64,000 nt of DNA. Source: a virus (lineage: Duplodnaviria; Heunggongvirae; Uroviricota; Caudoviricetes). Location of the stretch: IMG/VR virus record IMGVR_UViG_2740892229_000011. One strand, given 5' to 3'. Positions 7,255-42,360 of the stretch are shown here, one piece after another (position 1 is the stretch's first letter; each line of letters opens with the position of its first letter). The position numbers and the translations under genes were made by a program. The notes under the pieces were generated by a model, which worked only from the letters and a program-made list of their open reading frames with translations, was not told where the DNA came from and searched no databases.

Positions 7255-7923
7255 ATGACCAAGATCTTTGTGGTTGGCGGCACAAAGGGCGGGCCTGGCA
7301 AATCCACCGTTGCCCAGCAAATTGCCGTTTGCCTGAAAGTCAAAAAGAAGAAGAAGGTTTATATTACCGATATAGATATTCAGCGCACGACAACGAGCTG
7401 GTGTGAAGACCGTCGACAGAACGAAGACCTTGAGCTGATTCCTTTTGCATACGTTCAGGATGACATCATTAAGCACCTAAAATCGCTTCAGGGTAGAGCT
7501 GAGTTTGTAGTGGTAGATGCTGGTGGCTTCGACTCCGAAATTCAGCGACAAGCGATGCTGATGGCTGACGTTATCATTATCCCGCTGCGTCCTAAGCGTC
7601 GTGATTTGAAATCTTTACGTGACATCGATCCTATTATCGACAATGTTCGCAATGTAAACGATAAAGTGAAGGTCCGCGCGGTCATGAACCAGTGCCCGGC
7701 TTTGCCATCACAAGTGTCTCGCATTCTGGCGGCTAAAGAGATTGTTGAGACGTTTGGCATCGAGTCTGCGCCAGTCAATCTATATAACCGCAACGTCTAT
7801 GATGATGCGGAAGAGTCTGGTCGTTCTATCTTTGAAATGACCGGTAGCGAGCGCGACAAAAAGGCGGAAGCCGAGTTTGAAGAATTTGTAGATTATCTGT
7901 TGAGTCTGGAGGAAGAAGAATAA
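7255..7923 (+). CDS. parA: ParA-type partition ATPase (small, type Ib-like)
   Basis: Deviant Walker A 'GGTKGGPGKST' at the N-terminus; 222 aa; followed by a small partner gene. Confidence 0.85.
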   Translation: MTKIFVVGGTKGGPGKSTVAQQIAVCLKVKKKKKVYITDIDIQRTTTSWCEDRRQNEDLELIPFAYVQDDIIKHLKSLQGRAEFVVVDAGGFDSEIQRQAMLMADVIIIPLRPKRRDLKSLRDIDPIIDNVRNVNDKVKVRAVMNQCPALPSQVSRILAAKEIVETFGIESAPVNLYNRNVYDDAEESGRSIFEMTGSERDKKAEAEFEEFVDYLLSLEEEE

Positions 7924-14276: not shown

Positions 14277-16690
<2,414 letters not shown>

Positions 16691-20096: not shown

Positions 20097-20308
20097 TCGT
20101 ATTAAGTAAAAGGGAGAAAGAAACGCTTCATGAAATCAGTAAGTGGCCGGAGTTCCCTGAGTACTGGAAGCCTAAAACGCGAGCTAAGTTAGAGCGTTTA
20201 GGGTTGGTTGCAAACGTTTCTGAAACGTGGTGCTCGGCCAACTACCAGTTAACTGATAAAGGGAAAGTATTGCTACAGCAATTAGTAGAATCAGGAGCGT
20301 TAAAATGA
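20093..20308 (+). CDS. Hypothetical small protein
   Basis: 71-aa ORF overlapping ligase stop. Confidence 0.35.
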   Translation: MIVLSKREKETLHEISKWPEFPEYWKPKTRAKLERLGLVANVSETWCSANYQLTDKGKVLLQQLVESGALK

Positions 20309-20453
20309 TTCCATACATCTCATTAGCTTTTATGGGTGGCTTCCTTATTGGCTTCGGCATCTGTCGTGATTTAATTAAGCAGGAACTTAAAACCAAAACA
20401 CTGTGCATCGGAAAGCGTGTGTATCGGGTAGTTCATGAAACAAAGGTTAGAAA

Positions 20454-20744
20454 ATGAGCAATTTAACTTCTTGGGACTGGTGGTTGGCCACCTATTTCTT
20501 AGCGGCCGGAGTCGCATTCGCCTTTTACGTAGGTCAGTTAGTCGTAAAACTGTTGCTGATAAAATTTGCTAGTCATAAACGTATCGATGATGGTCTGTGG
20601 CGTCTTGGCACTCTGGTGGAAACTCGCTACGGGCAACTTAAGGAGAACGAAACCATTACTATCCAAGCGAAACGGTTCACTGCCACCATCACAAGAACAC
20701 CTAGTCGTAGAGTGGCCTTGATCAAAAAAGTCACAACCGAATAA
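20454..20744 (+). CDS. Small membrane protein
   Basis: 96 aa; N-terminal TM 'WWLATYFLAAGVAFAFYVGQLVV'. Confidence 0.4.
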   Translation: MSNLTSWDWWLATYFLAAGVAFAFYVGQLVVKLLLIKFASHKRIDDGLWRLGTLVETRYGQLKENETITIQAKRFTATITRTPSRRVALIKKVTTE

Positions 20745-21522
20745 AAACACAATGATAAGTATTTACTTACTTATCTTTTATGTATAAGATGACTTTGTTT
20801 TCGTTGAGACGCGACTGTTTGAACTTAAATACAAGTGCAAACGAAGAAGTCTATCTGGCAGTAGCCTAATAAGCCAAACACCAGCGAGGTCAGTTTCCAG
20901 CCTCGTTACCGAAATGGGACACACTGAGCGAGTGTGATTGCAGAACGCAGGAGGGAACATTCATGTTCCCTCCGATGAAGTAACAGAATGGGCGGTTGGT
21001 ATATTTTCAACTCCATATGACTCCCGGATTCTTAGCCACTGACCGCCCATCCTGTTACGTCATTTTGTTCAATTATGTCGTTTATACTGGGTTAAAAAGC
21101 GGCGACGTAGCCCGGCTGGTATGGTTAGCCAGCACACAACGTTGAGGCCATTACATTTTTATCAATTCTAAGGTTCTATTCACAGAGATACCGGCGAGCG
21201 TTGATATGTAACATGTTGGGCAAACATTCAATCGGAGTAGTGGCCTCAACGTTGTGAAGACAGGATTGTTGTGTAGGTTTAACCACTGTTGCCATTGGTG
21301 CCTGTTTTCACAACAAATGATTCCATACATCACATTGTATAAATTACAAAGTAGGTGCTGTCCTCAGAAACATCATCTACTTAAAGATTTTGCCTTCTAC
21401 TATTGAGCGAAGTCGAAAGCGTCTGGCACTAACGAAAAGTGCAAGTAGCGGTGCGTTTCCTGGCAGAAACTAAACCGTCGCGATTGGCACTGTTGAGTAA
21501 TAAATACTGGCAGTGCTGAATT

Positions 21523-21597
21523 GATGGTGTAGCTCAGCGGTAGAGCAGTTGGCTGTTAACCAACTGGTCGGTGGTTCGAATCCACCCACCATCGCCA
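21523..21597 (+). tRNA. tRNA-Asn (anticodon GTT)
   Basis: Manual fold: acceptor gatggtg/caccatc, D-arm 'agctcagcggtagagc', anticodon arm gttgg-CTGTTAA-ccaac, T-arm ggtgg-ttcgaat-ccacc, 3' CCA encoded. Confidence 0.7.
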
Positions 21598-21602
21598 ATT
21601 TA

Positions 21603-21689
21603 GGGGAGTTAGTCCGTAGGGGCAGCGGGGTAGACTGTAAATCTACTGTCATTGCGACTCGGGTGGTTCGACTCCATCACTCCCCACCA
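21603..21689 (+). tRNA. tRNA-Tyr (anticodon GTA), long variable arm
   Basis: Acceptor ggggagt/actcccc, anticodon arm gtaga-CTGTAAA-tctac, long variable arm, T-loop 'ttcgact', CCA encoded. Confidence 0.6.
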
Positions 21690-21693
21690 AATT

Positions 21694-21769
21694 GCCGGTT
21701 TAGCTCAGTTGGTAGAGCGCCTGCCTTGTAAGCAGGATGTCAGCGGTTCGATCCCGTTAACCGGCACCA
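21694..21769 (+). tRNA. tRNA-Thr (anticodon TGT)
   Basis: Acceptor gccggtt/aaccggc, D-arm 'agctcagttggtagagc', anticodon arm cctgc-CTTGTAA-gcagg, T-loop 'ttcgatc', CCA encoded. Confidence 0.7.
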
Positions 21770-22089
21770 ACACAACAGGTAAGAGCATTGGGCGAATCGG
21801 CGATACTGACCCACAAGCCCGTAAATCGATAGAGTCAGACCAGTGCTCTTACCGTTGTGAGGAAGTGCAGCTCTTTGAAGCAACCAGAAGATAAGCATCT
21901 GGCTTCACAACACAACGATAAGATCATTACGGTTAATCGTCGTTCATGTGCACAATGACTGGTCGAAAGGTAGTGATCTTACCGTTGTGATGAATGCACA
22001 GGCTGATGTGCCGCAACTACAGTAGTGCGCGCTTTGCGGGGCTTGCTACAACCCTGTGTCGGAGTTCAGCACCGACCATCACAATAGCT

Positions 22090-22176
22090 GGAGAGTAGGG
22101 AGCATGGTGCTCAAGCGGTCTTGAAATCCGTCCCATTGTGCAAACGATGATGGTTCGATTCCATTACTCTCCGCCA
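22090..22176 (+). tRNA. Probable tRNA-Ser (anticodon TGA), long variable arm
   Basis: Acceptor ggagagt/actctcc, anticodon loop 'cttgaaa', T-arm gatgg-ttcgatt-ccatt, 3' gCCA; D-arm and anticodon stem pair imperfectly, so less certain. Confidence 0.45.
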
Positions 22177-22333
22177 GACACAGCGTTGAGCGGTTTGGCC
22201 TTTTAATCACCCAGATTAAGACTCCGCTAACATAAACCAGACCGCTCAACGCTGTGATAGACAATTACGGCAGACGTTCTTAACCATAGCTTGCTAACAT
22301 CCTAGCAACACTTTTTTTCAGCGCAAAATTCAA

Positions 22334-22354
22334 AGGGGCTTCGGCCCCTTTTTT
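22334..22354 (+). terminator. Rho-independent terminator after tRNA region
   Basis: 'aggggcttcggcccct' hairpin followed by 'tttttt'. Confidence 0.65.
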
Positions 22355-22397
22355 GCAACTGAAAGAGTCAAGTCTACGAACTTTGTAGGAAGAAATA

Positions 22398-22748
22398 ATG
22401 ACCAGCAAAGAGAACACACCACTAAAAGTCACCCCTGAACACATTGAACAACTCATTCAAAGTGAACATTATTTCACTGCATATGATGCCAGCCACGGGG
22501 ATAACTTCATCTCTGTTTACAATTCAAAAACAGATATCGACAAAGGTCATGAGTCGTTAAAACTCTTAACGTTCTGCGTTATGGTTCTCAAAAATGGATA
22601 TACCGTAACGGGAAAATCTGCGTGCGTAAGACCAGAAATCTTCAACTTTGATGTTGGTCGCGAGTACGCTCGAAAAGATGCTATCGATCAAATCTGGCCA
22701 CTGGAAGGCTATCTCCTGAAGCAAAAGTGGCATGAGGCAAAGCAATGA
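22398..22748 (+). CDS. Hypothetical protein
   Basis: 116-aa ORF; start overlaps glutaredoxin gene. Confidence 0.4.
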   Translation: MTSKENTPLKVTPEHIEQLIQSEHYFTAYDASHGDNFISVYNSKTDIDKGHESLKLLTFCVMVLKNGYTVTGKSACVRPEIFNFDVGREYARKDAIDQIWPLEGYLLKQKWHEAKQ

Positions 22749-22990
22749 CGATCACTATCTACGGACGAGATAACTGCTCATACTGCAAACGTGCAGTCGA
22801 GCTGGCGAAGCAACTAAAGGGACATGGCTACGGTGATTATGAGTACATCGACATCACCACTGCCGGTATCGACAAGGAAAAACTAAGTGAAATTGTTGGT
22901 AAACCGGTAGAGACTATCCCCAAGGTGCTGATCGATGGCCAGCCGATTGGCGGATACACAGAACTGGCTGCATACGTCAGCACCCTCTGA
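22745..22990 (+). CDS. Glutaredoxin / NrdH-like redoxin
   Basis: 'TIYGRDNCSYCKRAVELAK' with a CxxC active site near the N-terminus; 81 aa. Confidence 0.7.
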   Translation: MTITIYGRDNCSYCKRAVELAKQLKGHGYGDYEYIDITTAGIDKEKLSEIVGKPVETIPKVLIDGQPIGGYTELAAYVSTL

Positions 22991-23200
22991 TTTTAACGGC
23001 TCACAGGAGCCGTTTTTATTCCCACCAAACTCACTCCCATTTCCCTTAAAATTCAAAAAACAACGTCAAAATGATTCCATACCTACTATGTATGGAATCA
23101 TTGCTGAAAATGAGTTACTTTTACTCTTGATCCTATAAGAATCTATGCCTAATATACTGTTTACTTATACAGTGCATCGGCGTAACTCGGTGATTGTCAT

Positions 23201-24304
23201 ATGAAAAATAGCTTTGACAGAGCACGCGCTGCGGAGAACACCTCAAAAGAGGCGATAGAGTATCTCGAAAGAGCATCTCAAATGCAGGCCGTTATGATCT
23301 CCCAGGTCAGCAATGACATGAGATTCTCGGACGCATTCATGTTATTCACTCGCTTATCTCTGCTGATAACCAGACGTCGGCCAGAGATCGCTGTTCATTG
23401 TATTTTGATACATGTTTTGCCGCACATTGCCGATGTAAAAGTAAGTGACATTAATAGGTTCATGGTGAACCAACTGGTCAACCCACTAATACTGGATGGC
23501 AAAATTGTTATGGGCCGCCGCGTTTTCTCTCTGATGAAGCAGTTCCTTAGCTGGTGCGCCTTCCAGGGGATGATAGACGTGTCACCGTTAAACGATATGT
23601 CACTTAACAAAGTTGCCGGTGGCGCAAAGCCCACACCTCGCGAGCGGAAGCTGACCGACGCAGAGGTATGGGTGTTCTGGAATATATGGGACTACTTCAA
23701 TGTGTGTGCTGGTACAAAATGGGCGGCCAGGCTATGTCTTGTATCCGCAAGACGACCTGACGAAGTACTGCGGGCTAAAAAAAGTGAGTTCAATCTTAAG
23801 CGTGGGGTTTGGAATCAAGGCAAGAGGAACAAATCTGCCCGTGAGCATTCTCTGCCTTTAAGCTCATTAATGCGCACTTGTATTGAAGAGTTGTTCGAAT
23901 ATGGTAAAGACAGCCAGTGGCTCGTGCCTTCGAATAAAAAAATCGGGAAAGACCTTCCTATGTCTAAAGTGGCAATAGCCCAGGCATTACGTCGTATTCT
24001 GGAACGACCAGAACTGATGGAGCTTGAGCCATTTACACCCCGAGATTTGCGCCGTACTGCGCGTAGTTACTTCCCAGCATTAGGCATAAGCCAGGAGGTA
24101 TCACGTAAAATCATGAACCACAGTCTTGAGGGGATAGATCGGGTCTACGACCGGCACGATTATATGGACGAGATGCGAGACGCCTTAGAAAGTTTCTCGA
24201 CGTACATCGCATCAATCGTAGAGCAACCGGATTTAGACGAAATTGACCACAAATTTAAGGGAGATCGTCTATCAACAGAGCTTATTCGTGTAAATTTTTC
24301 ATAG
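23201..24304 (+). CDS. int: Tyrosine recombinase / phage integrase
   Basis: C-terminal catalytic region 'ARRPDEVLRAK...PFTPRDLRRTARSY...HSLEGIDRVYDRHDY' (R...H-x-x-R...Y pattern); about 1 kb downstream of the tRNA array. Confidence 0.75.
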   Translation: MKNSFDRARAAENTSKEAIEYLERASQMQAVMISQVSNDMRFSDAFMLFTRLSLLITRRRPEIAVHCILIHVLPHIADVKVSDINRFMVNQLVNPLILDGKIVMGRRVFSLMKQFLSWCAFQGMIDVSPLNDMSLNKVAGGAKPTPRERKLTDAEVWVFWNIWDYFNVCAGTKWAARLCLVSARRPDEVLRAKKSEFNLKRGVWNQGKRNKSAREHSLPLSSLMRTCIEELFEYGKDSQWLVPSNKKIGKDLPMSKVAIAQALRRILERPELMELEPFTPRDLRRTARSYFPALGISQEVSRKIMNHSLEGIDRVYDRHDYMDEMRDALESFSTYIASIVEQPDLDEIDHKFKGDRLSTELIRVNFS

Positions 24305-24685
24305 AGACTTTATGGCCTCAACAACCTTTTGTGATGCGCCTTTCTCTTTACCGAATCGCTCGTTATATGCAGCAAGAACCTGTTTTTCGTCCTCGTTAAG
24401 AGGAGCAGTGCCTTCTTTGTATAAAAATGCTGCGAGTTCGGGTTGGCGTTCTTCCAGCACCATCATCATAAGACGACTTGGCTCAATACCCAGTGCCAGC
24501 GCCAGCGGACGAACCTTATCGATAGGCAAAGGAATTTTGCCGCTTTTAATTAAAGAAAGGTTGTTGGCGTTTTTATACCCAATTGTTTTGGCTATCTGGG
24601 CCTGGCTCATAGGTGAGGATTCAATCAACCCTGCGATAAAAGCAGCGTAGCGACTTTCTATAAATTCAATCTTGTTATCAGACAT
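24299..24685 (-). CDS. HTH (XRE/CI-Cro-like) transcriptional repressor
   Basis: 128 aa; 'MSQAQIAKTIGYKNANNLSLIKSGKIPLPIDKVRPLALALGIEP' helix-turn-helix; convergent with int; the upstream region at about 24707-24727 carries the dispersed 'ggtaagtgcttacc' palindrome. Confidence 0.65.
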   Translation of the reverse strand: MSDNKIEFIESRYAAFIAGLIESSPMSQAQIAKTIGYKNANNLSLIKSGKIPLPIDKVRPLALALGIEPSRLMMMVLEERQPELAAFLYKEGTAPLNEDEKQVLAAYNERFGKEKGASQKVVEAIKSL

Positions 24686-24936
24686 GGTTACAACCTTTGC
24701 GCGTTCAATTCTCTCTGGTAAGTGCTTACCGATATTACATCAAAGGTTAGGGTTGTAAAGCTATTATCATTTTTTTCGATAGGCACTTAAAAGACCGGTT
24801 AAAGGCCATTGCACGGAGAAAAATTAGCCCAAAACAGGTAAGAAAATCAACTTGCATATGATATGAATGTATTCAGTATTGATACAAATTTTAGTAGTAT
24901 TCCTTACCATAGTATAAGTTAGAATGGATTGATTGA

Positions 24937-25149
24937 ATGAACACCACTATTTCCAGCCTAATCGCTCTTGAGATCGGACACGTACAGAAATTAGCTGATG
25001 AGTGTGTAGCTGACATCCTCACCGATCTACCGAATGAGCAGATTCAGGTTGGTGTGAATGACACAACTGGATTTATATTCGAACTTAACAACAAACGCTT
25101 CACGCTTCTCAATACCGGCTCCGGGTCTTTAGCCGTCAGAATCTGTTAA
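24937..25149 (+). CDS. Hypothetical small protein, divergent from repressor
   Basis: 70-aa ORF in Cro-like position opposite the HTH gene; no clear HTH seen. Confidence 0.3.
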   Translation: MNTTISSLIALEIGHVQKLADECVADILTDLPNEQIQVGVNDTTGFIFELNNKRFTLLNTGSGSLAVRIC

Positions 25150-25247
25150 CCCCTCTTCTCCCTGCGCGAATGGCTTAGTTCCCTGTTCGCGCAGTGCTAC
25201 ATTAAACACACTAGTAAATAATTTGTTTTCATAACAAAGGATTAGCC

Positions 25248-28867: not shown

Positions 28868-31800
28868 ATGAAGGCACTGATGGTTCGAACTGACTTCTCA
28901 CTTGGGGAGTCGGCTTTAAAAGCAGAAAACGCGGTGAAGATTGCCAGAGAAGCTGGCTACACCGCTGTAATTTCAGCAGATAGCATGAATATTGCGAGTG
29001 TTATTCCACTACAACGTGCCGCTGGTGACGACATGGCGGTTATTTGTGGTGTGAAACTAAATATCGTTGATGATCCCACATACGAGCACCGGGCTAAACT
29101 TGCTAAAGAATCTAAGGGATGTATGGAATCATTAGAGCGAGGACGTAACTACTCGTTTACCGCTCTAATTAAAAATGAGAAAGGATATCGCGACATCTGC
29201 GAACTAATGACGGCGGCCAACACACGAGAACAGTTCTACTTTGTACCGCGTCTCTCGCTCGAACAGTTGGTTTCTACATATGCCAAAGGCAACATCATCC
29301 TGCTTACTTCCGACATCGGTAGCGTGTTCCAACGCAACGATTTTGCAAAAATCATAAGCACACTGATTACAGCGGGTGGAAAAGACAACTTCTATAGTGT
29401 GGTTTATCCGCACCCTACCCCATTCTACGACCAGATTAACGTCCGGGCGATGAAAGTCGCCAGCGCATTGAAAATAGAGCCAGTGGCGTTCTATCCCGCT
29501 TATTACGAATCGATCGACGATGCAGACATTAAAGACATTGCGCACATGGTTACGAACAACATCAAAATCGACCAGCCGCATCGTCTGCGTATCCCCCACC
29601 AGCGAGATAACGCCGTCAATGGTCGCCGCCATCTCCTTGAGGCGCTTAAAGCCTTCTCCGTTCGCATGGATGTGCCGGTAACAGCTGCAATGGCCTCAAC
29701 AACGCAGGATACCATTATCGATGCCTGCACATGGCGCTGGCATGAATTGCCGCCAGCACTGCCAAAGATGGCAGACGACGAGCCTGCAACGCTTATGAAA
29801 CTGGCTGTTGCAGGGCTGCGTAAACGTCTTACCACAAAAGAGTTTGGCTACACACCACCTGCTTCTGAGAACAGGGTTTATGTTGAGCGGCTAAAGTACG
29901 AAATGGACACGCTGACTCGCCTGGGATTTTGTGGTTACTTCCTGATGGTACGCGATCTGATGAATCACAGCCGTGAAACTGGCATTCCTGTCGGGCCTGG
30001 TCGTGGTTCCTCCGCTGGCTCTTTGGTGGCATGGTGCATAGGCATAACCAACGTCGACCCTATCCGTCACGGTCTTCTGTTTGAACGTTTCATCAACCCT
30101 GAGCGTCTCGACTTGCCAGATGCGGATTTGGACTTCAGCCAGGCACGTCGCCATGAGGTGATCGAGTATCTGAATGAACGATACGGCGAAGATTACGTTG
30201 CGGGTATTCCGAACTTCACATATCTGGGCGCAGCCTCTGCACTACGTGACACCGCTCGTATTTATGGTGTGGAGTCCGCAGATATGGCGGTATCAAAAGA
30301 GCTGAGGAACGTCGAGGATGATAGCCTTCCATTGGAAGAGCTGCGCGAACAACTGGCAAGTCTCGACAAATACGCGACAAAATACCCTGATGCATTCAAT
30401 GCTGCCTGCAAGTTACAAAGTCTTATGCGTGGCTTTGGTAGACATGCGGCAGGGATGATCGTAGCAGGTGTTCCTCTGACAGAACGTACACCGGTTGAAC
30501 GCCGTGGTGACGCGCGTTGTATCGCATTTGACAAGCGTTACTGCGAGGCTATGGGCCTAATTAAGCTGGACGTACTTGGTCTGGCAACTCTCGATTTGCT
30601 CGATAGTGCAAAACGCTACATAAAAGAGAACACAGGTGAAGATATCAATCTTGATGCCATTTCTCTTGAAGATCGCAAGGTGCTGGATGGTTTTGCTGCT
30701 GGGTACACTCAAGGTGTTTTCCAGCTTGAATCAGGCCCAATGCGCAAGCTGCTTAAAGATTTAGGTGGTGGAATTGAGCCAATGAGCTTTAAAACGGTCG
30801 TTGCTACGACTGCGCTCTTCCGGCCGGGGCCAATTCAGTCAGGCATGTTGGATGATTATGTTTCTGTCGCCAAAGGCTTTATGACGCCGGAATCATTACA
30901 CCCCGTTCTTGATGAACTTACCGCAGAAACAAATGGCGTGATTCTCTATCAGGAACAGACGATGAACGCGACTCGATTGCTTGCCGGCTTCACAATGGCT
31001 GAAGCTGACGGTGTTCGTAAAGCGATCGGCAAAAAAGACATGGAGAAAATGAAGAGCATGGGTGAGAAGTTCATCGTTCAGGCTCAAGCTGGCTGGATCG
31101 ACGTTGAGCTGGAAGATGGCACTACACAGCGCATTCACCGTGCGGAACATTTTAAATGCGAAGACGGAACTCTGAAAACTGTCGAAGAGGCACTTGAGTT
31201 CGGTGCAAAACTACCTATAAACGCAGTACGCGTTACAGCGTCACATCCAGGGCTATCAGAGATGAAAGCGAAGGAGATCTGGACCGCATTCGAAAAGAAT
31301 GGTGCCTACCAGTTCAACAAATCACACTCTGTTGCTTACTCCTTAATCAGTTATCAATCTATGTGGTTGAAAACTCATTATCCCGCAGAGTTTTTCGCTG
31401 CTGCTCTCACTATTCTTGGCGAAGATAAACACCAGGGGCTGGTTAAAGATGCGCTGACCTATGGTATTCGCGTATTGCCACCAGACGTTAACGTGTCATC
31501 TAACCGAATCGAGATCCGCACGCTTGAAGATGGCAGCCAGGTGCTGTATGCGCCCTTCTCTGCTGTGAAGGGGTGTTCTGAGAATGGCTGCCAGGCCATC
31601 ATGAGAGCGCGAGAAAAGGTTGGCGGCAAATTCGAGTCACTTGCGCAATTCGAAGAAGCTGTCGAGAAACGTGCCTGTAATAGTCGAGTGCGCGAATCGC
31701 TGCAAAAAGTAGGGGCGTTTGCATCCATCGAGCCAGGTAGTCTGCCAGCAACTGATCCAGAGCGCCTCCGCGACCAGGCTGAATTGATGGGAAACCTTGT

Positions 31801-35362: not shown

Positions 35363-37702
35363 ATGGCAAAAGGAAAATCCGCACTGGCACTTGCTCTGAA
35401 AAAGAAAATCGGTAGCAACGACGAAATTCAGAAAGTAACTCATTGGATTGATACAGGCTTTCCACCGTTAAACAAAGCTATTTCTGGTCGTTACGATGGC
35501 GGCTTCCCATGTGGTCGTATCGTCGAAGTATTCGGTCCTCCAAGTGCAGGGAAATGTGTTACCGCAGACACCATGCTGCTGACGGAGCGTGGAATGGTAA
35601 CAGTGAAAGAGTTGTTTGAGATTGAAGGGTACAAAGCGACATGCACTACTCGCGATGTAGAGCATAACGTTGGACTCATCAATGAAAATGGCGTGATAGA
35701 GAAGACCTCACACCTGACATGGAACAACCGTCGCAAATTCAAGCGTATTAAGCTGGCATCAGGCGGTTATATCGAGGCTACGTTCCGTCACCCAATCCGT
35801 GTGGTTGACGACTTAGGTAATGTCGTCTGGCGACATGCTGAAAAAATCAGTGTAGGCGACACGATTCCTTCAATGGTTGGCACACATCAATTCGGCGATC
35901 AGCACCTGGATGCCAATATCGCAAAACTGATGGGCTATTTAATTGCTGACGGATACGTGGCCTCTGAAAATTCAGTGAATTTTTCTAACACAGATCCTTT
36001 CATCAAGGATGAGTACTACCGCCTCATTTCGCTGGTATCAGACAAGATGCCAGTTACGAGAAAACATAACGGCTCGGAAGACCATGTGCTGTTTAGCAAA
36101 GAGGTGCGTTCGCTGCTTTTTAAAGAATATGGTCTGGAGTATGAGAAAGCTGCTGGCAAGCAGGTTCCGTTGAGTGTGCGTCGCGCCAATAGCGAGGCTC
36201 AAATTGCATTCCTTCGCGGCTACTTTGAGCTGGAATGCCACGTCAATGATGGTCGCTGCATTGAGGTTGTGAGCGCGAGTGGGCTGCTGCTACAGCAAAT
36301 TCGCCTCATGCTCCTGAATCTGGGGATTACGTCAACTATCTCTGAAAAACACGTCGCGGGTTATGAAAATACATATTACCGGCTGTCATTCAGTGGCTCT
36401 AATTACGACCTTTTTCTGTCAACGATTGGTTTCGAATCTCCGGCACGTTTATCAGTGGCAACCAAACGGGACATTGGTTTTGACCGCACTTACTCAGGCT
36501 ATGTTCCGCACATCAGCGGCTTAGTGAAATCACTCTACGAGTCGCTCACCAAGACCACCCGTGAAGACTACGCTCTGGTAGACCACGTTATTGGCCGCGG
36601 CGATCGTGTCGGAATAGACAAACTGCGAGAAATCTATGTCTCCTTCATTGGCAGAAAGAATCGTTTTAACGAGCATCTGTTTGCACAACTGGCAGCGGTA
36701 ATTGGCTCTAACTTGTTCTACGACGAAGTCGTGGCTATTGAGGAAGGTGAAGCACCAACGTTCGACGTAGCGATGCCGGAAACACACTCTTTCTGGTCTA
36801 ACGGGATTATCAGCCACAACACATTCCTTGCAACAGCAGCGATGATCTCCGCTCAAAAACAAGATGGTCTGGCGGTATTCCTCGATCATGAAAACAGTTT
36901 TGACGTTGGCCTGGCTGTAGCCAATGGCCTGAACGCAGATGAGGATGACGGTCAGTGGGTATACAAGCAGCCAGATACCTTCGAAGACTCTGTAGAGTTG
37001 ATCGGCACAATACTTAAATTGGTTCGTGATGAAGAGCTTATCCCCGAATCAGCACCTATCTGTATCGTGGCTGACTCACTTGCGTCTATGGTTCCGAACT
37101 CCAAAGCCGAGAAGTTCGAAAAGATGGCTGAAGGCACTGCCAAAGACAAAGATCAGCTAAACATGAACGACAATACGGCACTGGCTCGTGCGACAAGTGC
37201 GAACTTCCCTACTCTGGCTTTGTGGGCACGCAAATACAACGCCTGCATCATCTTCTTGAATCAGGTTCGCACAAAAATCGGTGTAATGTTTGGCGACCCT
37301 ACTACGTCGCCAGGTGGAGATTCACCGAAGTTCTACGCTTCTGTACGTATCCGTCTTGGTGCATCGGTGATGAAGGATGGTAAAGAGAAGATCGGCCAGG
37401 ACGTAGGCGCAGAATGCATCAAAAACAAAGTTGCACCACCGTATGGCAAATGCACCTGGAAATTCTACTTCGATCCTACTCGTGGCCTCGACGTTATCGA
37501 ATCGCTCGTCGAGTACATGCTGGAAGAAGGATACCTGCCAAAGAACGCCAGCGGGCGAGTTGAAATTGGTGACAAGAAATACACCAAATCGCAGATCGTC
37601 GAGATGTATCGGGAGAAGCCACTGGCTGAAATCATTGCGGCTTTGCAGGCAATCGACGACCGAAGAGCAAAAGACAACCCCACCGAGTCAGTAGAAGAGT
37701 AA
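35363..37702 (+). CDS. recA: RecA-family recombinase interrupted by an in-frame intein
   Basis: N-extein ends with P-loop 'GPPSAGK'; C-extein contains RecA signatures 'IIFLNQVRTKIGVMFGDPTTSPGGDSPKFYASVRIRLG'; exteins total about 357 aa, the size of a RecA. Confidence 0.8.
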   Translation: MAKGKSALALALKKKIGSNDEIQKVTHWIDTGFPPLNKAISGRYDGGFPCGRIVEVFGPPSAGKCVTADTMLLTERGMVTVKELFEIEGYKATCTTRDVEHNVGLINENGVIEKTSHLTWNNRRKFKRIKLASGGYIEATFRHPIRVVDDLGNVVWRHAEKISVGDTIPSMVGTHQFGDQHLDANIAKLMGYLIADGYVASENSVNFSNTDPFIKDEYYRLISLVSDKMPVTRKHNGSEDHVLFSKEVRSLLFKEYGLEYEKAAGKQVPLSVRRANSEAQIAFLRGYFELECHVNDGRCIEVVSASGLLLQQIRLMLLNLGITSTISEKHVAGYENTYYRLSFSGSNYDLFLSTIGFESPARLSVATKRDIGFDRTYSGYVPHISGLVKSLYESLTKTTREDYALVDHVIGRGDRVGIDKLREIYVSFIGRKNRFNEHLFAQLAAVIGSNLFYDEVVAIEEGEAPTFDVAMPETHSFWSNGIISHNTFLATAAMISAQKQDGLAVFLDHENSFDVGLAVANGLNADEDDGQWVYKQPDTFEDSVELIGTILKLVRDEELIPESAPICIVADSLASMVPNSKAEKFEKMAEGTAKDKDQLNMNDNTALARATSANFPTLALWARKYNACIIFLNQVRTKIGVMFGDPTTSPGGDSPKFYASVRIRLGASVMKDGKEKIGQDVGAECIKNKVAPPYGKCTWKFYFDPTRGLDVIESLVEYMLEEGYLPKNASGRVEIGDKKYTKSQIVEMYREKPLAEIIAALQAIDDRRAKDNPTESVEE
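35555..36820 (+). other. Intein (about 422 aa) with LAGLIDADG homing-endonuclease domain, inserted in the RecA P-loop
   Basis: Begins with Cys ('K|CVTADTMLL'), ends 'IISHN' followed by Thr (+1); LAGLIDADG-type blocks 'LMGYLIADGYV' and 'FLRGYFELECHV'. Confidence 0.7.
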
Positions 37703-40479: not shown

Positions 40480-41030
40480 TAGTCGTCACCGCTGACAGCA
40501 TACACAATCAACTACCGCTGATAGCATATCGAGAGTCTATCTCACCGCTCACAGCATACTTTACTCGATTTTTTACCGCTGACAGCATACTTAAGACATT
40601 GCATGAATAATGTGTACCGGTATGGGTATAACCAGAACAAAATTACCGCTGGCAGCATACGAAGGTCTGACATATACCATTAATTACCGCTGATAGCATA
40701 TCCAAACAAAAATTCCTCAATAAAACACCGCTGACAGCATACGTTCTATCAGGGAGCAGCAGGCAATAAATGCCTTTCACTACAAGCAATCAGCGCAATA
40801 GCAATAGAATGTTAGTGAGCGCAAACCTATATGGAATGCACTCTTCGAGGTTAGTAACCACTGGGGAGGTATGACAGAGCATTGAGTGGTGATAGATGAT
40901 TTACCGCCCACAGCATACGTTCATCTCACTATACCGCTGGTAGCATATATTTAACCGTTTACAGCATACTTTTCAGAAAAATAGCCGCTGATAGCATACA
41001 TTTCACCGCTGACAGCATATCAAAGCAGTT
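40480..41030. repeat. Iteron array downstream of repA (incA-like copy-control locus); about 12 copies of a 16-bp repeat
   Basis: Repeats of consensus 'ACCGCTGACAGCATAC' (variants accgctgatagcatat, accgctggcagcatac, etc.) at irregular 25-45 bp spacing, with a break at about 40760-40900. Confidence 0.8.
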
Positions 41031-42114
41031 TGAGACTATTGGAAAGGATCTCAATCATCTTGATATTTTCAGGCGTCAAATTCTGCGAAAGTTCGGTTAT
41101 CTTGTTGATAATGTTCTGTTTGGCATCAATTTCCCCAGCTTTCTCATCTAGTTTTTTGGGTTCGATGTCTTCAGGTTTTGGCGGTGCGACTTTGAGTTTT
41201 GGATTGCGGCTGTGAATCTGGATATAGATCGACCGCCCTCGCTTAATCTCGCTGTATTCGAGATAACCCAAATCTTGGAGAGCTTTTAAGCCGTTGCGTA
41301 TAGTCTGATTCTGCGAGCTGACATTCCTGCTACTCAAATTGAGTCGCGCACGCAATCGAGCAAGCGATACCGGCGCAGGCTTGGTTGGAAGACTTTCGAT
41401 GAAGGTGTACAGAGCCTGTGCTGTTTCTTTGCGTGGTAGCTTATTGATAACCTTTAACTGCAAAAGAACCTTATGGTCAAAGCGATATAGTTCGGCCAGC
41501 TTCGGTTCTGCATAGAACACCACCGTATCTTTCTGCTCGTTGTAGTCCACGCTATTGATGAGGTGCACCATCAGAAGCGAGATCTTGTTAGAGCCGTCGA
41601 CGTTCTTTTCTTCATACGTTCTCTGGAAAGACAGAGTTGTACGCATGATCTTCAAAAGACTGTTTGTAAGCCGGTCGCGGAGTGTTTTGCGGATCTGTGA
41701 CGATGGATAGCCACAAAACTTCGCAAATTTCGTGATGCTTAACTCGACACGACCGTTAGGTTCGCCGTATTCTGCCAGCGAACGCACAACGCCCACCCAC
41801 GTTTTGAAATCATGATCCATGTCGAGACGAGGACCGGTTATCTTGATATCGGAATAGCCTTCAGAACGGGCTACTTCGAGCTGAACAAGCTCCTTTGAAG
41901 CATCGATCTCATTTGGCTTGTTACGCTTGCTGTATTTTGTCCCCTTGAGCGTGGGCACGAACAATCCCAGCCGCATCAACGCAATTGGTTGGACTGTATT
42001 GTTGCTATTAGGGACAAGTTCCCCTGTGTACAATTCAAGGGAACCTTCTTCAAAGTTGTCGAGATTATCTTCTACTTCTTTGTTATTTTTACCTTTTTTA
42101 TTTTTTGTGGACAT
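41020..42114 (-). CDS. repA: Plasmid replication initiator RepA (iteron-binding)
   Basis: About 365-aa ORF flanked on both sides by the same iterons; start placed at ATG 42114 ('MSTKNKKGKNNK') because the upstream 40 codons of the listed ORF read through the iterons. Confidence 0.7.
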   Translation of the reverse strand: MSTKNKKGKNNKEVEDNLDNFEEGSLELYTGELVPNSNNTVQPIALMRLGLFVPTLKGTKYSKRNKPNEIDASKELVQLEVARSEGYSDIKITGPRLDMDHDFKTWVGVVRSLAEYGEPNGRVELSITKFAKFCGYPSSQIRKTLRDRLTNSLLKIMRTTLSFQRTYEEKNVDGSNKISLLMVHLINSVDYNEQKDTVVFYAEPKLAELYRFDHKVLLQLKVINKLPRKETAQALYTFIESLPTKPAPVSLARLRARLNLSSRNVSSQNQTIRNGLKALQDLGYLEYSEIKRGRSIYIQIHSRNPKLKVAPPKPEDIEPKKLDEKAGEIDAKQNIINKITELSQNLTPENIKMIEILSNSLKLL

Positions 42115-42124
42115 GTGGACACCT

Positions 42125-42360
42125 TTGTCATTCAACCGCTGACAGCATACTTGATTTGCCGCTGACAGAATACCAAAAACAGTTGGCAGCATACGGTGAA
42201 CCGCTGACAGACTATCAATTACCGCTGACAGCATACATGAACATGGCTTCAGACCAGTCGTGGCGCGGCTTACAGCGATCGGGGATCTTATTTGATCTAT
42301 ACAAGGATCTATCTATGGATCTCTTTATTAGGATCTATCCTGTGGATATGTGAATAATTA
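42125..42360. promoter_or_regulatory. Replication origin (P1 oriR-like): iterons, GATC-containing heptamer repeats and DnaA-box-like site
   Basis: Four to five iterons (42128-42240: 'accgctgacagcatac', 'ccgctgacagaatacc', 'accgctgacagcatac'...), then repeated 'ggatct' units each containing GATC (42280-42340), then 'tgtggatat' (about 42341-42349) resembling a DnaA box. Confidence 0.65.

Follow-up and report, generated by a model that had tools for sequence, protein, structure and literature searches.

The integrase of an Escherichia coli phage-plasmid is most likely not used for chromosome entry and probably forms an SOS-regulated, Cre/loxP-like maintenance module with an adjacent palindrome

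The 64,000-nt window, by which we mean the whole stretch of DNA that was analysed, comes from an SSU5/pHCM2-type phage-plasmid and carries four tRNA genes, a tyrosine recombinase gene (int) and a convergent HTH regulator gene side by side. This raises the question of whether the recombinase takes the element into the host chromosome. The initial annotation had read the locus as an integrative lysogeny module whose attP is in a tRNA gene or close to one, on an element that also carries RepA/iterons and ParA, and had proposed either a dual lifestyle or a recombinase repurposed for multimer resolution. The plasmid functions were recovered: a Rep3-family initiator (41020-42234, minus strand) lies beside 12 iterons with the unit ACCGCTGACAGCATA (40483-41021), the replicon as a whole spanning 40483-42234 on the minus strand, and a ParA/MipZ-like partition ATPase is encoded at about 7255-7923 on the plus strand. 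The iteron sequence shows no relation to the arms of the palindrome P near int (described below). Positions 21000-25200 are about 100% identical to the E. coli plasmid NZ_CP027358.1 and 98% identical to the phage-plasmid Cyrano. SSU5-type phage-plasmids have been reported as exclusively extrachromosomal (PMC9600943).

The recombinase ORF was confirmed at 23201-24304 on the plus strand, and ARAGORN and Rfam identified tRNA-Asn (21523-21597), tRNA-Tyr (21603-21689), tRNA-Thr (21694-21769) and tRNA-Ser (22090-22176) on the same strand, with 1,025 bp between the end of the last and the int start codon, in agreement with the distance of about 1 kb given earlier. A tyrosine integrase, a convergent repressor and tRNA genes all within 1 kb would suit a dual lifestyle, in which Int joins a host tRNA gene to an attP situated within the tRNA array or beside it and the element also exists as a chromosomal prophage. 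The closest characterised relatives of Int are, in addition, prophage integrases (25-34% identity). On the other hand, int-HTH DNA was found in 252 of the 5,426 complete E. coli genomes searched, and all of its 254 places were plasmid and none chromosomal, so the integrated copies that the initial annotation had proposed to look for in sequenced isolates did not turn up. A search in the sense of its check for attB matches to the tRNA 3' ends gave, at the sensitivity used, only 16 weak chromosomal places for the tRNA array against 768 plasmid places on SSU5-like and P1-like elements; the chromosomal match among those listed was one of 71 bp and 89% identity to a tRNA-Thr gene. All four tRNA genes are complete, and they are shared with P1-like elements, which do not integrate. 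Moreover, among relatives the number of tRNA genes and their distance from int vary, or tRNA genes are missing near int, where int and the palindrome P upstream of it (described below) are unchanged. Judged from these comparisons, the tRNA genes are unrelated cargo and not an attachment site. No excisionase was recognised adjoining int, whose neighbours are grxA and the HTH gene; a 70-aa ORF at 24937-25149 could be assigned only to PHROG 2627, a family without an assigned function. Together with the Int protein, which has no arm-binding domain, these results make a dual lifestyle very improbable. The initial annotation had itself tied that lifestyle to detectable chromosomal integration as opposed to action at a plasmid site alone, and computationally we found no integration in E. 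coli and a site on the plasmid. The 'integrase' of this E. coli phage-plasmid is thus most likely not used for chromosome entry.

The int product, of 367 aa, consists of a core-binding and a catalytic domain. It was matched by Phage_integrase in Pfam (PF00589, E = 2.9e-10) and also in PHROG, while its sole NCBIfam match, PRK09692, scored 33.9 bits against a cut-off of 434. Pfam found the arm-binding domain PF13356 in the nearest outgroup, the P4-type integrases, and not in Int or its family. In a set of 29 sequences, the catalytic residues R185, R284 and Y316 do not vary and K211 and H307 hardly vary, and the His-II position is an arginine (Arg281) throughout the family. Fold and residues are thus those of tyrosine site-specific recombinases, His-II excepted, and this deviation may count against a recombination reading. 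The AlphaFold2 model (pLDDT 84.5) is helical in residues 1-56. Foldseek matched it with a probability of 1.00 to lambda Int, Tn1549 Int, Xer, IntI and Cre; the closest matches were lambda Int(75-356) and Tn1549 Int(82-397), spans that correspond to those proteins minus their arm-binding domains. IntI ranked below lambda Int. Membership of the Cre family proper was considered and rejected, as a sequence search of the PDB gave no match and the Cre fold matches were weaker, with E-values of about 1e-2 for Cre chains versus 1e-6 for lambda Int and Tn1549 Int and with Cre ranking 35th or lower.

About 100 bp upstream of int lies the palindrome P, AATGATTCCATAC-CTACTAT-GTATGGAATCATT (23070-23102), with perfect inverted arms of 13 bp and an asymmetric 7-bp spacer. 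It occurs once in the window, where none would be expected by chance, and it was present upstream of int in all relatives examined, with invariant arms and differing spacers. An exact-arm scan of IMG/VR yielded 101 loci, and in all but three P was accompanied by an int homologue at a distance of about 100 bp (about 45 bp in a clade of about 60% Int identity); of the exceptions, two have inserted sequence after the LexA box and one has P at a contig end. P is strictly coupled to the int gene. Ten spacer variants occur between arms of the E. coli type and track the Int clades; six more occur with the other arm, and all 16 are of 7 bp. In distant relatives, whose Int is 44-50% identical, both arms are altered symmetrically to TGACTCCAGAC, giving the site ATGACTCCAGAC-N7-GTCTGGAGTCAT with T5C and T10G in each arm, and the Photorhabdus site has an arm form intermediate between the two types. 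This co-inheritance and the covariation of arm and protein point to P as the cognate target that Int would bind. The pair also has the make-up of a simple-site system, namely two inverted arms separated by 6-8 bp (13-7-13 in P) and a recombinase with core-binding and catalytic domains only, without arm-type sites. At 10-12 bp to the left of P lies an A-tract motif, AAAATTCAAAAAAC (23048-23061; consensus about RATTYAAAAAA), which keeps a constant distance from P in most clades next to unrelated flanks and is possibly an accessory or bending element. P is often a mosaic breakpoint; in one relative (L080), identity is 92-95% to its left and 75% to its right.

Between P and int, a putative int promoter was read from the sequence, TTGATC and TAATAT with a 17-nt spacer (23127-23155, plus strand). 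A generic promoter scan omitted it, the first hexamer being under the scan threshold; both hexamers are kept in relatives with divergent flanks. With about 25 bp between it and the −35 hexamer downstream, P could also, or instead, be a regulatory binding site. A LexA (SOS) box, TACTGTTTACTTATACAGT (23155-23173), overlaps both the −10 hexamer and the region of the transcription start; it is the sole one in the window and in the phage-plasmid backbone and one of two in the 110-kb plasmid. Of 99 loci whose Int has 75% identity or more, 94 retain its CTGT-N8-ACAG, with 14 different sequences in the inner 8 bp, and the box is also found in Serratia; it is absent from the Klebsiella clade of about 60% Int identity, from Xenorhabdus and Providencia elements and from megaplasmid copies. 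As in promoters of the LexA regulon, the box covers core elements and is conserved, which suggests that LexA represses int and that the promoter is SOS-controlled. In a lysogen of Cyrano, whose Int is 99% identical, int was transcribed at about half the level of the repressor gene, and its transcript level, a log2 value of 5.6 in LB, reached 10.3 in macrophages, where the SOS response is induced (PMC9928086 S1 Table). Cyrano genes near int were likewise up in macrophages (PMC9928086 S1 Table), so the rise is not specific to LexA control.

We consider it probable that int and P form a Cre/loxP-like plasmid-maintenance module, regulated by the SOS response, for multimer resolution and possibly cyclisation. 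Two Int monomers would occupy the two 13-bp arms of each P, and synapsis would bring together two such sites carried by a plasmid dimer or by an infecting genome with terminal redundancy. Strand exchange across the 7-bp spacer would then give monomer circles, as with Cre at loxP in the phage-plasmid P1. Arm-type sites and an excisionase would be dispensable because Int has just the core-binding and catalytic domains. In the clade with the LexA box, int transcription would be kept low by LexA and go up in the SOS response, and the HTH gene would form a separate immunity module with its own autoregulated promoter. The copy number of Cyrano is about 5.5 per cell, at which plasmid dimers would endanger segregation. 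XerCD is already present in E. coli, and many plasmids are resolved through it; this may count against a dedicated resolution role of Int.

The wider distribution of Int bears on the same reading. Members of the family were found in 924 PLSDB plasmids, including pMT1 of Y. pestis, and the int-bearing contigs in GTDB genomes and IMG/VR are of plasmid size. Among the distant relatives with 44-50% Int identity, a solitary int with its palindrome lies amid metabolic genes on a 508-kb plasmid of Pantoea vagans, a 723-kb Rahnella replicon and a 437-kb Erwinia contig, and neither phage genes nor an HTH gene was found near these copies. The multimer-resolution alternative of the initial annotation thus gains from the adjacent lox-like site, the covariation and the solitary megaplasmid copies; 'repurposed' is probably not the right term, as the family lives on plasmids throughout. 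Some int-carrying records of 130-324 kb, a few exact-protein matches on contigs of 0.2-0.9 Mb, sites of the other arm type on megaplasmids and the mosaic breakpoints at P could instead reflect rare or host-specific integration at a P-like, non-tRNA chromosomal site, or Int-mediated fusion with replicons that carry P-like sites. However, BLAST found no chromosomal match covering P in the 5,426 E. coli genomes (cores shorter than 11 bp would escape), the GTDB and IMG/VR contigs are plasmid-sized as noted, and a 240-kb plasmid has the ordinary grx-cargo-P-int order, so that fusion did not occur at P there. We regard such events as quite unlikely to explain the locus.

Three exact copies of one P arm surround int at conserved positions, each facing P, and the plain resolution model leaves these half-sites unaccounted for. 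Half-site A, AATGATTCCATACATC, which is one P arm plus ATC (20304-20319, plus strand), overlaps the start codon of a small gene (MIPYI..., PHROG 6302), with position and orientation conserved across clades. Half-site B, with the same sequence (21316-21331, plus strand), is non-coding and lies 192 bp before tRNA-Asn. Half-site D (29118-29133, minus strand), again the same, is inside dnaE, where it encodes GCMESL, and keeps its codon offset in clades whose Int is as little as about 60% identical; distant DnaE proteins do not conserve this peptide, which places the constraint at the level of the DNA. One relative (L004) has a single fused A/B site and is without exactly the 1.0-kb A-B segment that is present in its close relative L034.

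The region to the left of P is variable. A terminator-like hairpin after grxA (22995-23022, plus strand) forms the left edge of the cargo interval, the grx-P interval holds different genes in Cyrano, pJN2-26, pEc-JB2-4 and others, and P is adjoined by over 15 left flanks and cargo sets that are unrelated to one another. This variety would be expected if Int inserted circular cassettes at P in the manner of an integron; LexA control, known from integron integrases, and the precise absence, in one relative, of the 1.0-kb A-B segment with direct half-sites at its ends would fit as well. Capture of this kind is nevertheless hardly to be expected here: in L002, L003, L005 and L006 the cargo is not flanked by another P or by a half-site, even when up to 2 mismatches are allowed, the left homology break of Cyrano falls within grx, none of 187 plasmids of this clade has the fused A/B junction, and IntI is outranked by lambda Int in the structural matches. 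As the cargo is not bounded by second sites, membership of the integrons was rejected.

The HTH gene (24299-24685, minus strand) encodes 128 aa and converges on int, their 3' ends overlapping by 6 bp, as had been annotated. The protein matched PHROG 8, 'transcriptional regulator', at 1.3e-11, and Pfam HTH_19 weakly (E = 7.8e-4, 19.7 bits versus a cut-off of 30.2); Pfam detected no S24 peptidase (self-cleavage) domain, and no relative was found in the PDB. Its 99%-related counterpart in Cyrano, CYRAN_45, is annotated as a putative repressor and expressed in the lysogen. The earlier label of 'repressor' is therefore plausible from the PHROG 8 match and from Cyrano, although the HTH_19 score is below cut-off, and the gene is plausibly a phage immunity repressor and a module separate from int. 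The promoter scan placed its promoter, TTTACA and TAATAT with a 16-nt spacer, at 24759 to 24732 on the minus strand, and a palindrome, GGTAAGTGCTTACC (24717-24730), spans the predicted start and is likely an autoregulatory operator. This block (24717-24759), which a divergent early gene adjoins, is nearly invariant in six divergent relatives.

All phage-plasmid relatives, including those of only 44% identity, have int and the HTH gene convergent, with 3' ends that overlap or abut so closely that a terminator would not fit between them. No significant structure was found 3' of int, and the first terminator-like hairpin on the plus strand (24525-24541) lies within the HTH gene. SOS-induced int transcription could thus run antisense into the repressor gene and help to flip the lysis-lysogeny switch, as the main role of the locus, and Int at P and the half-sites might additionally organise or repress the early region. 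Such a regulatory role would agree with the sole LexA box of the backbone being in the int promoter, with the conservation of the half-sites as DNA, and with a repressor that lacks a self-cleavage domain, yet ciprofloxacin induces Cyrano 39-fold. In Cyrano, int transcripts exceeded those of the HTH gene only in the condition in which the early gene CYRAN_46 was highest (PMC9928086 S1 Table). On the other hand, convergence persists in the Klebsiella, Xenorhabdus and Providencia elements without the LexA box, another SOS-responsive factor with a non-canonical box may act instead, and the megaplasmid int-P pairs exist without the HTH gene or the LexA box, which argues for recombination as the ancestral function. 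Regulation as the main role therefore seems unlikely to us, and plasmid maintenance by int and P is the reading that we compare with known systems.

Like IntI/attI, int appears to be controlled by LexA and is preceded by its presumed site, on the far side of which the gene content varies; unlike in integrons, no attC-like second sites bound the cargo, P is double-stranded and palindromic, and IntI matches the Int model less well than lambda Int does. With the P4/CP4-57-type integrases (PF13356 + PF22022 + PF00589), Int shares the 25-34% identity and the motifs ..DLRRT.., ..NH.. and ..YDRHDY... Its family, however, is without the N-terminal arm-binding domain of about 60 aa, resides on plasmids and not at chromosomal tRNA sites, and has a perfect palindrome as its presumed target in place of an attP with arm sites. 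Plasmid and transposon resolution systems include ResD/rfsF of F, Rsd/crs of Salmonella virulence plasmids, TnpI/IRS of Tn4430 and XerCD at cer/psi. By analogy with these, a recombinase beside its own site on a low-copy replicon would be expected to turn multimers into monomers. Extra copies of the binding motif serve as accessory sites in TnpI/IRS; in these resolution systems such sites lie within about 100-200 bp of the core, whereas the half-sites here are 1.8-6 kb away and on both sides. The closest parallel in working would be Cre/loxP of P1, for which dimer resolution and cyclisation of the infecting genome are the expected roles (PMC7969092). Int is not a sequence relative of Cre, the spacer of P has 7 bp versus 8 in loxP, P lies directly upstream of int with a LexA box in the int promoter, His-II is an arginine, and conserved remote half-sites surround the gene. 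Nevertheless, both are tyrosine recombinases of a phage that lives as a low-copy plasmid, both act or would act at a single simple site with two 13-bp inverted arms and a short asymmetric spacer, and both pairs are free of arm-type sites and an excisionase, so that the int-P module can be described, by analogy, as Cre/loxP-like in working and outside the Cre sequence family.

Open reading frame prediction and the Pfam, PHROG, ARAGORN and Rfam results agreed with the initial annotation in placing an integrase gene, a convergent HTH gene and a tRNA array together on an element that also carries a plasmid replicon. The int gene (23201-24304, + strand) encodes a tyrosine recombinase of 367 amino acids with a match to Pfam Phage_integrase (E = 2.9e-10) and, weakly, to the integrase central domain. 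The 128-amino-acid product of the HTH gene (24299-24685, - strand), a putative repressor, matched HTH_19 below the family cut-off and PHROG 8 'transcriptional regulator' at 1.3e-11, and the 3' ends of the two genes overlap by 6 bp. The genes for tRNA-Asn, Tyr, Thr and Ser (21523-22176, all + strand) were predicted by ARAGORN and confirmed by Rfam, and a gp49-family gene and a glutaredoxin gene, grxA, lie between them and int. A Rep3-type initiator gene (41020-42234, - strand) adjoins 12 iterons (40483-41021), and a ParA/MipZ-like ATPase is encoded at about 7255-7923. Positions 21000-25200 were ~100% identical to NZ_CP027358.1, a non-mobilisable E. coli plasmid of 110 kb. Their identity to pLF82, an SSU5-like phage-plasmid known as 'Escherichia phage Cyrano', was 98%; Cyrano produces virions, has ~5.5 copies per cell and is induced 39-fold by ciprofloxacin (PMC9928086).

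Elsewhere in the window, an IS21-family insertion sequence of 1,954 bp (14277-16230) encodes IstA (340 aa, with an rve domain) and IstB (260 aa) and is bounded by imperfect terminal inverted repeats of 28 bp, with what looks like a 5-bp target duplication. NZ_CP027358.1, otherwise 99.99% identical, lacks it and has an intact TPR-protein gene at that position. The replication region contains a 780-aa ORF of the type 'LAGLIDADG family homing endonuclease' (about 35363-37702). In a Xenorhabdus relative (L118, 12481-14802), a LAGLIDADG_3 insertion, probably an intein, lies within the CobS-like AAA protein.

The initial annotation had likened the layout to an integrative module with attP in or near a tRNA gene, had proposed either a double lifestyle or a recombinase repurposed for multimer resolution, and had called for a search for integrated copies. 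Int-HTH DNA was found in 252 of 5,426 complete E. coli genomes, and all 254 places were on plasmids, none on a chromosome. No chromosomal sequence covered P, a palindrome upstream of int, when a 76-bp query centred on the site was used; only chance-level flank matches (E = 7) were returned, which left no candidate for a chromosomal attB resembling P. Rare integration or cointegration at P-like sites is improbable. The tRNA array occurred at 768 places on plasmids, SSU5-like and P1-like phage-plasmids alike, and at 16 chromosomal places, of which the one listed is a 71-bp match (89%) to a tRNA-Thr gene. The tRNA genes are complete, variable cargo shared with P1-like elements, and relatives that have kept int have three, one or no tRNA genes nearby. 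Because chromosomal copies are absent in E. coli, the array is shared with P1-like elements and the number of tRNA genes near int varies, the proximity of int to the tRNAs is incidental. Thus the integrative reading did not hold: tRNA-directed integration, for all that the gene order recalls it, is highly improbable, and the element very probably makes no use of a chromosomal prophage state in E. coli.

An Rfam search over the non-coding DNA around the tRNAs found nothing except tRNAs. The non-coding DNA at 20750-21520 and 21770-22260 is full of long hairpins with the common motif CACAACG.../...CGTTGTG, for example 21135-21154/21237-21256 and 22179-22198/22237-22256, which have 20-nt arms that are 95% complementary. 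Outside the window, record positions 20593-24350 of NZ_CP027358.1 (L124) contain chromosomal-type metG and apbC genes beside lambdoid prophage fragments, and a near-perfect LexA box, TACTGTATATGCATACAGTA, stands upstream of an S24 peptidase gene there. These features point to an earlier exchange of DNA with a chromosome or prophage, unrelated to P.

P (23070-23102) is a perfect palindrome, AATGATTCCATAC-CTACTAT-GTATGGAATCATT, located ~100 bp before the int start codon and just past the grxA terminator. It occurs once in the window, where none is expected by chance, and comparison with the iterons showed these to be unrelated to its arms. The P-int pairing was checked in every relative whose fetched DNA ran through the int gene, and P was present upstream of int in Cyrano, Klebsiella pJN2-26, two further E. 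coli types, Kluyvera, Y. pestis and Buttiauxella, with identical arms, different spacers and divergent flanks. Scanning IMG/VR for exact copies of the arms gave 101 loci; apart from three, each has an int homologue ~100 bp from P (~45 bp in the ~60%-identity clade). The spacers in these loci fall into ten variants, every one of 7 bp, which follow the Int clades. As for the three loci with no int match, P stands at the contig end in L071, and in L069 and L085, both Klebsiella-type contigs, unrelated sequence beginning GTGCGCC... (from about 13230 and 4320, respectively) stands directly after the int promoter's LexA box, between the promoter and int. We suspect this insert to be a group II intron, and int presumably lies beyond the end of the stored locus.

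A protein search delimited an Int family of ~113 clusters, all from Enterobacterales and 44-100% identical, below which identity drops sharply to the P4-type integrases (25-34%). All members at 44-50% identity have a homologous palindrome directly upstream of the gene. The sites read GTGACTCCAGAC-TTAATAG-GTCTGGAGTCAT in Rahnella, GTGACTCCAGAC-TTATTAG-GTCTGGAGTCAT in Pantoea, GTGACTCCAGAC-CTATTAA-GTCTGGAGTCAT in Erwinia, ATGACTCCAGAC-TACATAG-GTCTGGAGTCAT in Providencia and GTGACTCCAGAC-TTAGTTA-GTCTGGAGTCTC in Xenorhabdus, and the Photorhabdus site, CTGACTCCAGAT-TTTATAG-GTCTGGAATCAA, is intermediate. Two arm positions are changed in these relatives, the same ones in both arms, while the spacer length is kept; such a symmetric change around a constant spacer is as one would predict for a recombinase paired with its own core site. 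Members of ~60% identity from Nissabacter and Serratia retain the E. coli-type arm. Int very probably has P as its cognate site. One spacer was seen in both orientations relative to int (CTATTAA vs TTAATAG), and this in both arm clades (L006 vs L009 and L120 vs L116). Most spacers have CTA beside the left arm or TAG beside the right one, so their true asymmetry is limited to 1-3 central bases.

The recombinase family is present in 924 PLSDB plasmids, from Klebsiella (342), Escherichia (227), Enterobacter (91), Pantoea (74), Yersinia (63, including pMT1 of CO92) and Salmonella (49). On a 508-kb plasmid of Pantoea vagans, a 723-kb Rahnella replicon and a 437-kb Erwinia contig, int is a solitary gene among metabolic genes, with neither phage genes nor an HTH neighbour. 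R185, R284 and Y316 did not vary in an alignment of 29 sequences, and K211 and H307 hardly varied; the His-II position is Arg281 across the family and His in the P4-type outgroup. The N-terminal arm-binding domain of the outgroup (PF13356) has no counterpart in the family. An AlphaFold2 model of Int (mean pLDDT 84.5) consists of a helical N-terminus followed by core-binding and catalytic domains, and its top structural matches were residues 82-397 of Tn1549 Int and 75-356 of lambda Int, which are those proteins minus their arm-binding domains, followed by Xer, IntI and Cre. Searches of PDB sequences with Int and the HTH protein found no relatives. By descent, Int is an arm-less offshoot of the P4-type integrases.

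The interval between grxA and P (22990-23069) is empty in the window and holds unrelated genes in relatives (L002 4587-5463, L003 1595-3371 and L005 4835-6002), among them a YafO-family toxin pair and CYRAN_43 of Cyrano, which is very highly expressed at about 700 times background (PMC9928086). On its left, P adjoins at least 15 unrelated sequences, most of them with an A-tract motif 10-12 bp from the arm. Our first impression that homology breaks exactly at the outer edge of P was revised, as the conserved A-tract motif reaches ~25 bp leftward and the flanks vary beyond it. P is also found at mosaic breakpoints, as in the relative L080, which is 92-95% identical to the window left of P and 75% to its right. 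Capture of cassettes at P could be imagined from such variable cargo; no second site bounding the cargo was found, so the interval is a permissive hotspot rather than a cassette system, and cassette capture was rejected as very unlikely.

The 16-mer AATGATTCCATACATC, made up of one P arm and ATC, has three exact further copies in the window, half-sites A (20304, + strand, at the start codon of a small gene), B (21316, + strand, non-coding) and D (29118-29133, - strand, inside dnaE). No others were found in the 110-kb plasmid with one mismatch allowed, and no second arm stands beside A, B or D. Their position and orientation are constant in all clades with the E. coli-type arm, down to ~60% Int identity; upstream half-sites are always on the + strand and downstream ones always on the - strand, so that every copy faces P. 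Clades at 84-86% identity have an extra minus-strand half-site within int. The DnaE loop in which D encodes GCMESL shows no conservation among distant DnaE proteins, so the constraint is on the DNA rather than on the protein. In the other-arm clades, no half-sites were found within 8-10 kb on either side, and hence no covariation with the arm was seen. In the relative L004, A and B are fused into one site, and exactly the 1.0-kb A-B segment present in its close relative L034 is missing. This is the sole natural case: a synthetic fused junction had no match in 187 plasmids of the window's clade, so A-B recombination is rare and frequent Int-mediated excision was rejected. An origin of the half-sites as hybrid scars of recombination at P is also unlikely, since A and B point the same way and 'ATC' mismatches the spacers of the local P sites. 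The half-sites could possibly serve accessory Int binding, DNA looping or nicking, or act as polar elements around a resolution site.

A putative int promoter (23127-23155; TTGATC, 17-nt spacer, TAATAT) lies between P and the start codon, and its -10 hexamer is overlapped by a LexA box, TACTGTTTACTTATACAGT (23155-23173). The window has no second LexA box; the 110-kb reference plasmid has one more, upstream of an S24 peptidase gene in an acquired segment. CTGT-N8-ACAG is retained in 94 of 99 loci with Int at least 75% identical, in 14 versions with differing inner 8 bp, which indicates selection on the box itself. The box is present in Serratia and absent from the ~60% Klebsiella clade and the distant members. 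According to RNA-seq of Cyrano, int reaches 49.5 normalised counts in LB, about half of the repressor's 95.8, and climbs from log2 5.6 in LB to log2 10.3 after 6 h in macrophages, an environment that the authors describe as genotoxic with a raised SOS response (PMC9928086). Neighbouring Cyrano genes rise as well, and the increase is therefore compatible with LexA control without proving it.

The HTH protein has no S24 peptidase domain according to Pfam. Its gene has a promoter of its own (24759 to 24732, - strand; TTTACA-16-TAATAT), a palindrome, GGTAAGTGCTTACC, spans the predicted start, and this promoter block is nearly invariant in six divergent relatives. In Cyrano, the gene is annotated as a putative repressor and is expressed in the lysogen (PMC9928086). 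Opposite to it lie a divergent early gene and then CobT-like, AAA and DnaE genes. The first divergent gene in all phage-plasmid relatives encodes 70 aa (24937-25149, PHROG 2627), and its Cyrano counterpart, CYRAN_46, shows the region's strongest rise in macrophages, from log2 4.3 to 10.8. The convergent overlap or abutment of int and the HTH gene is kept in every phage-plasmid relative down to 44% identity, and the HTH gene is missing beside the megaplasmid copies of int; together with its own promoter block, this absence marks it as a separate module. No significant structure was found downstream of int, and the first terminator-like hairpin on the + strand after int (24525-24541) is within the HTH gene. 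The HTH gene is possibly coupled to int through antisense transcription.

The best-supported reading of Int-P is that of a Cre/loxP-like module, and its role is probably, if by no great margin, multimer resolution or cyclisation. Int dimers would bind a pair of P sites, carried by a plasmid dimer or by a redundant infecting genome, and strand exchange across the 7-bp spacer would restore monomers. Expression of int would be low under LexA and raised in SOS, when RecA-driven dimers and lytic development both occur. We found no literature on the function of this recombinase or on the packaging mode of SSU5-type phages, which bears on cyclisation. Simple resolution does not account for three features, namely control by LexA, the conserved half-sites, of which one lies in a polymerase gene, and the obligatory convergent overlap with the repressor gene. 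A primarily regulatory role, combining SOS-driven convergent transcription with the Int half-sites, is unlikely. We likewise regard as doubtful that the recombinase module is wired into an SOS-sensing lysis-lysogeny decision, the 'integrase' being both plasmid resolvase and part of the induction switch. In such a switch, cleavage of LexA would activate the int promoter, the site of the backbone's only LexA box; int transcripts would run antisense through the overlapping repressor gene, whose product has no self-cleavage domain; and Int would occupy the oriented half-sites A, B and D, with the early replication region being reorganised or nicked.

Phage-plasmids of the SSU5/pHCM2/pMT1 type are common in E. 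coli, Klebsiella, Salmonella Typhi and Yersinia pestis, and the uniform annotation of the family as 'site-specific integrase' invites the wrong inference of an integrative lifestyle. A self-contained lox-like module accounts for elements that are never found integrated, and gives efforts to cure or destabilise these plasmids a defined target. With at least two natural recombinase/site specificities, the TGATTCCATAC and TGACTCCAGAC arms, the family also provides candidate orthogonal genetic tools. In recent reviews, phage-plasmids are said to 'typically lack integrases' (PMC12977533). We rate Int-P as an uncharacterised plasmid-borne simple-site tyrosine recombination system. As a module it would work like Cre/loxP of P1, although Int is no relative of Cre, and it goes beyond the textbook simple-site case in its LexA control, its remote oriented half-sites and its obligatory overlap with a repressor gene.
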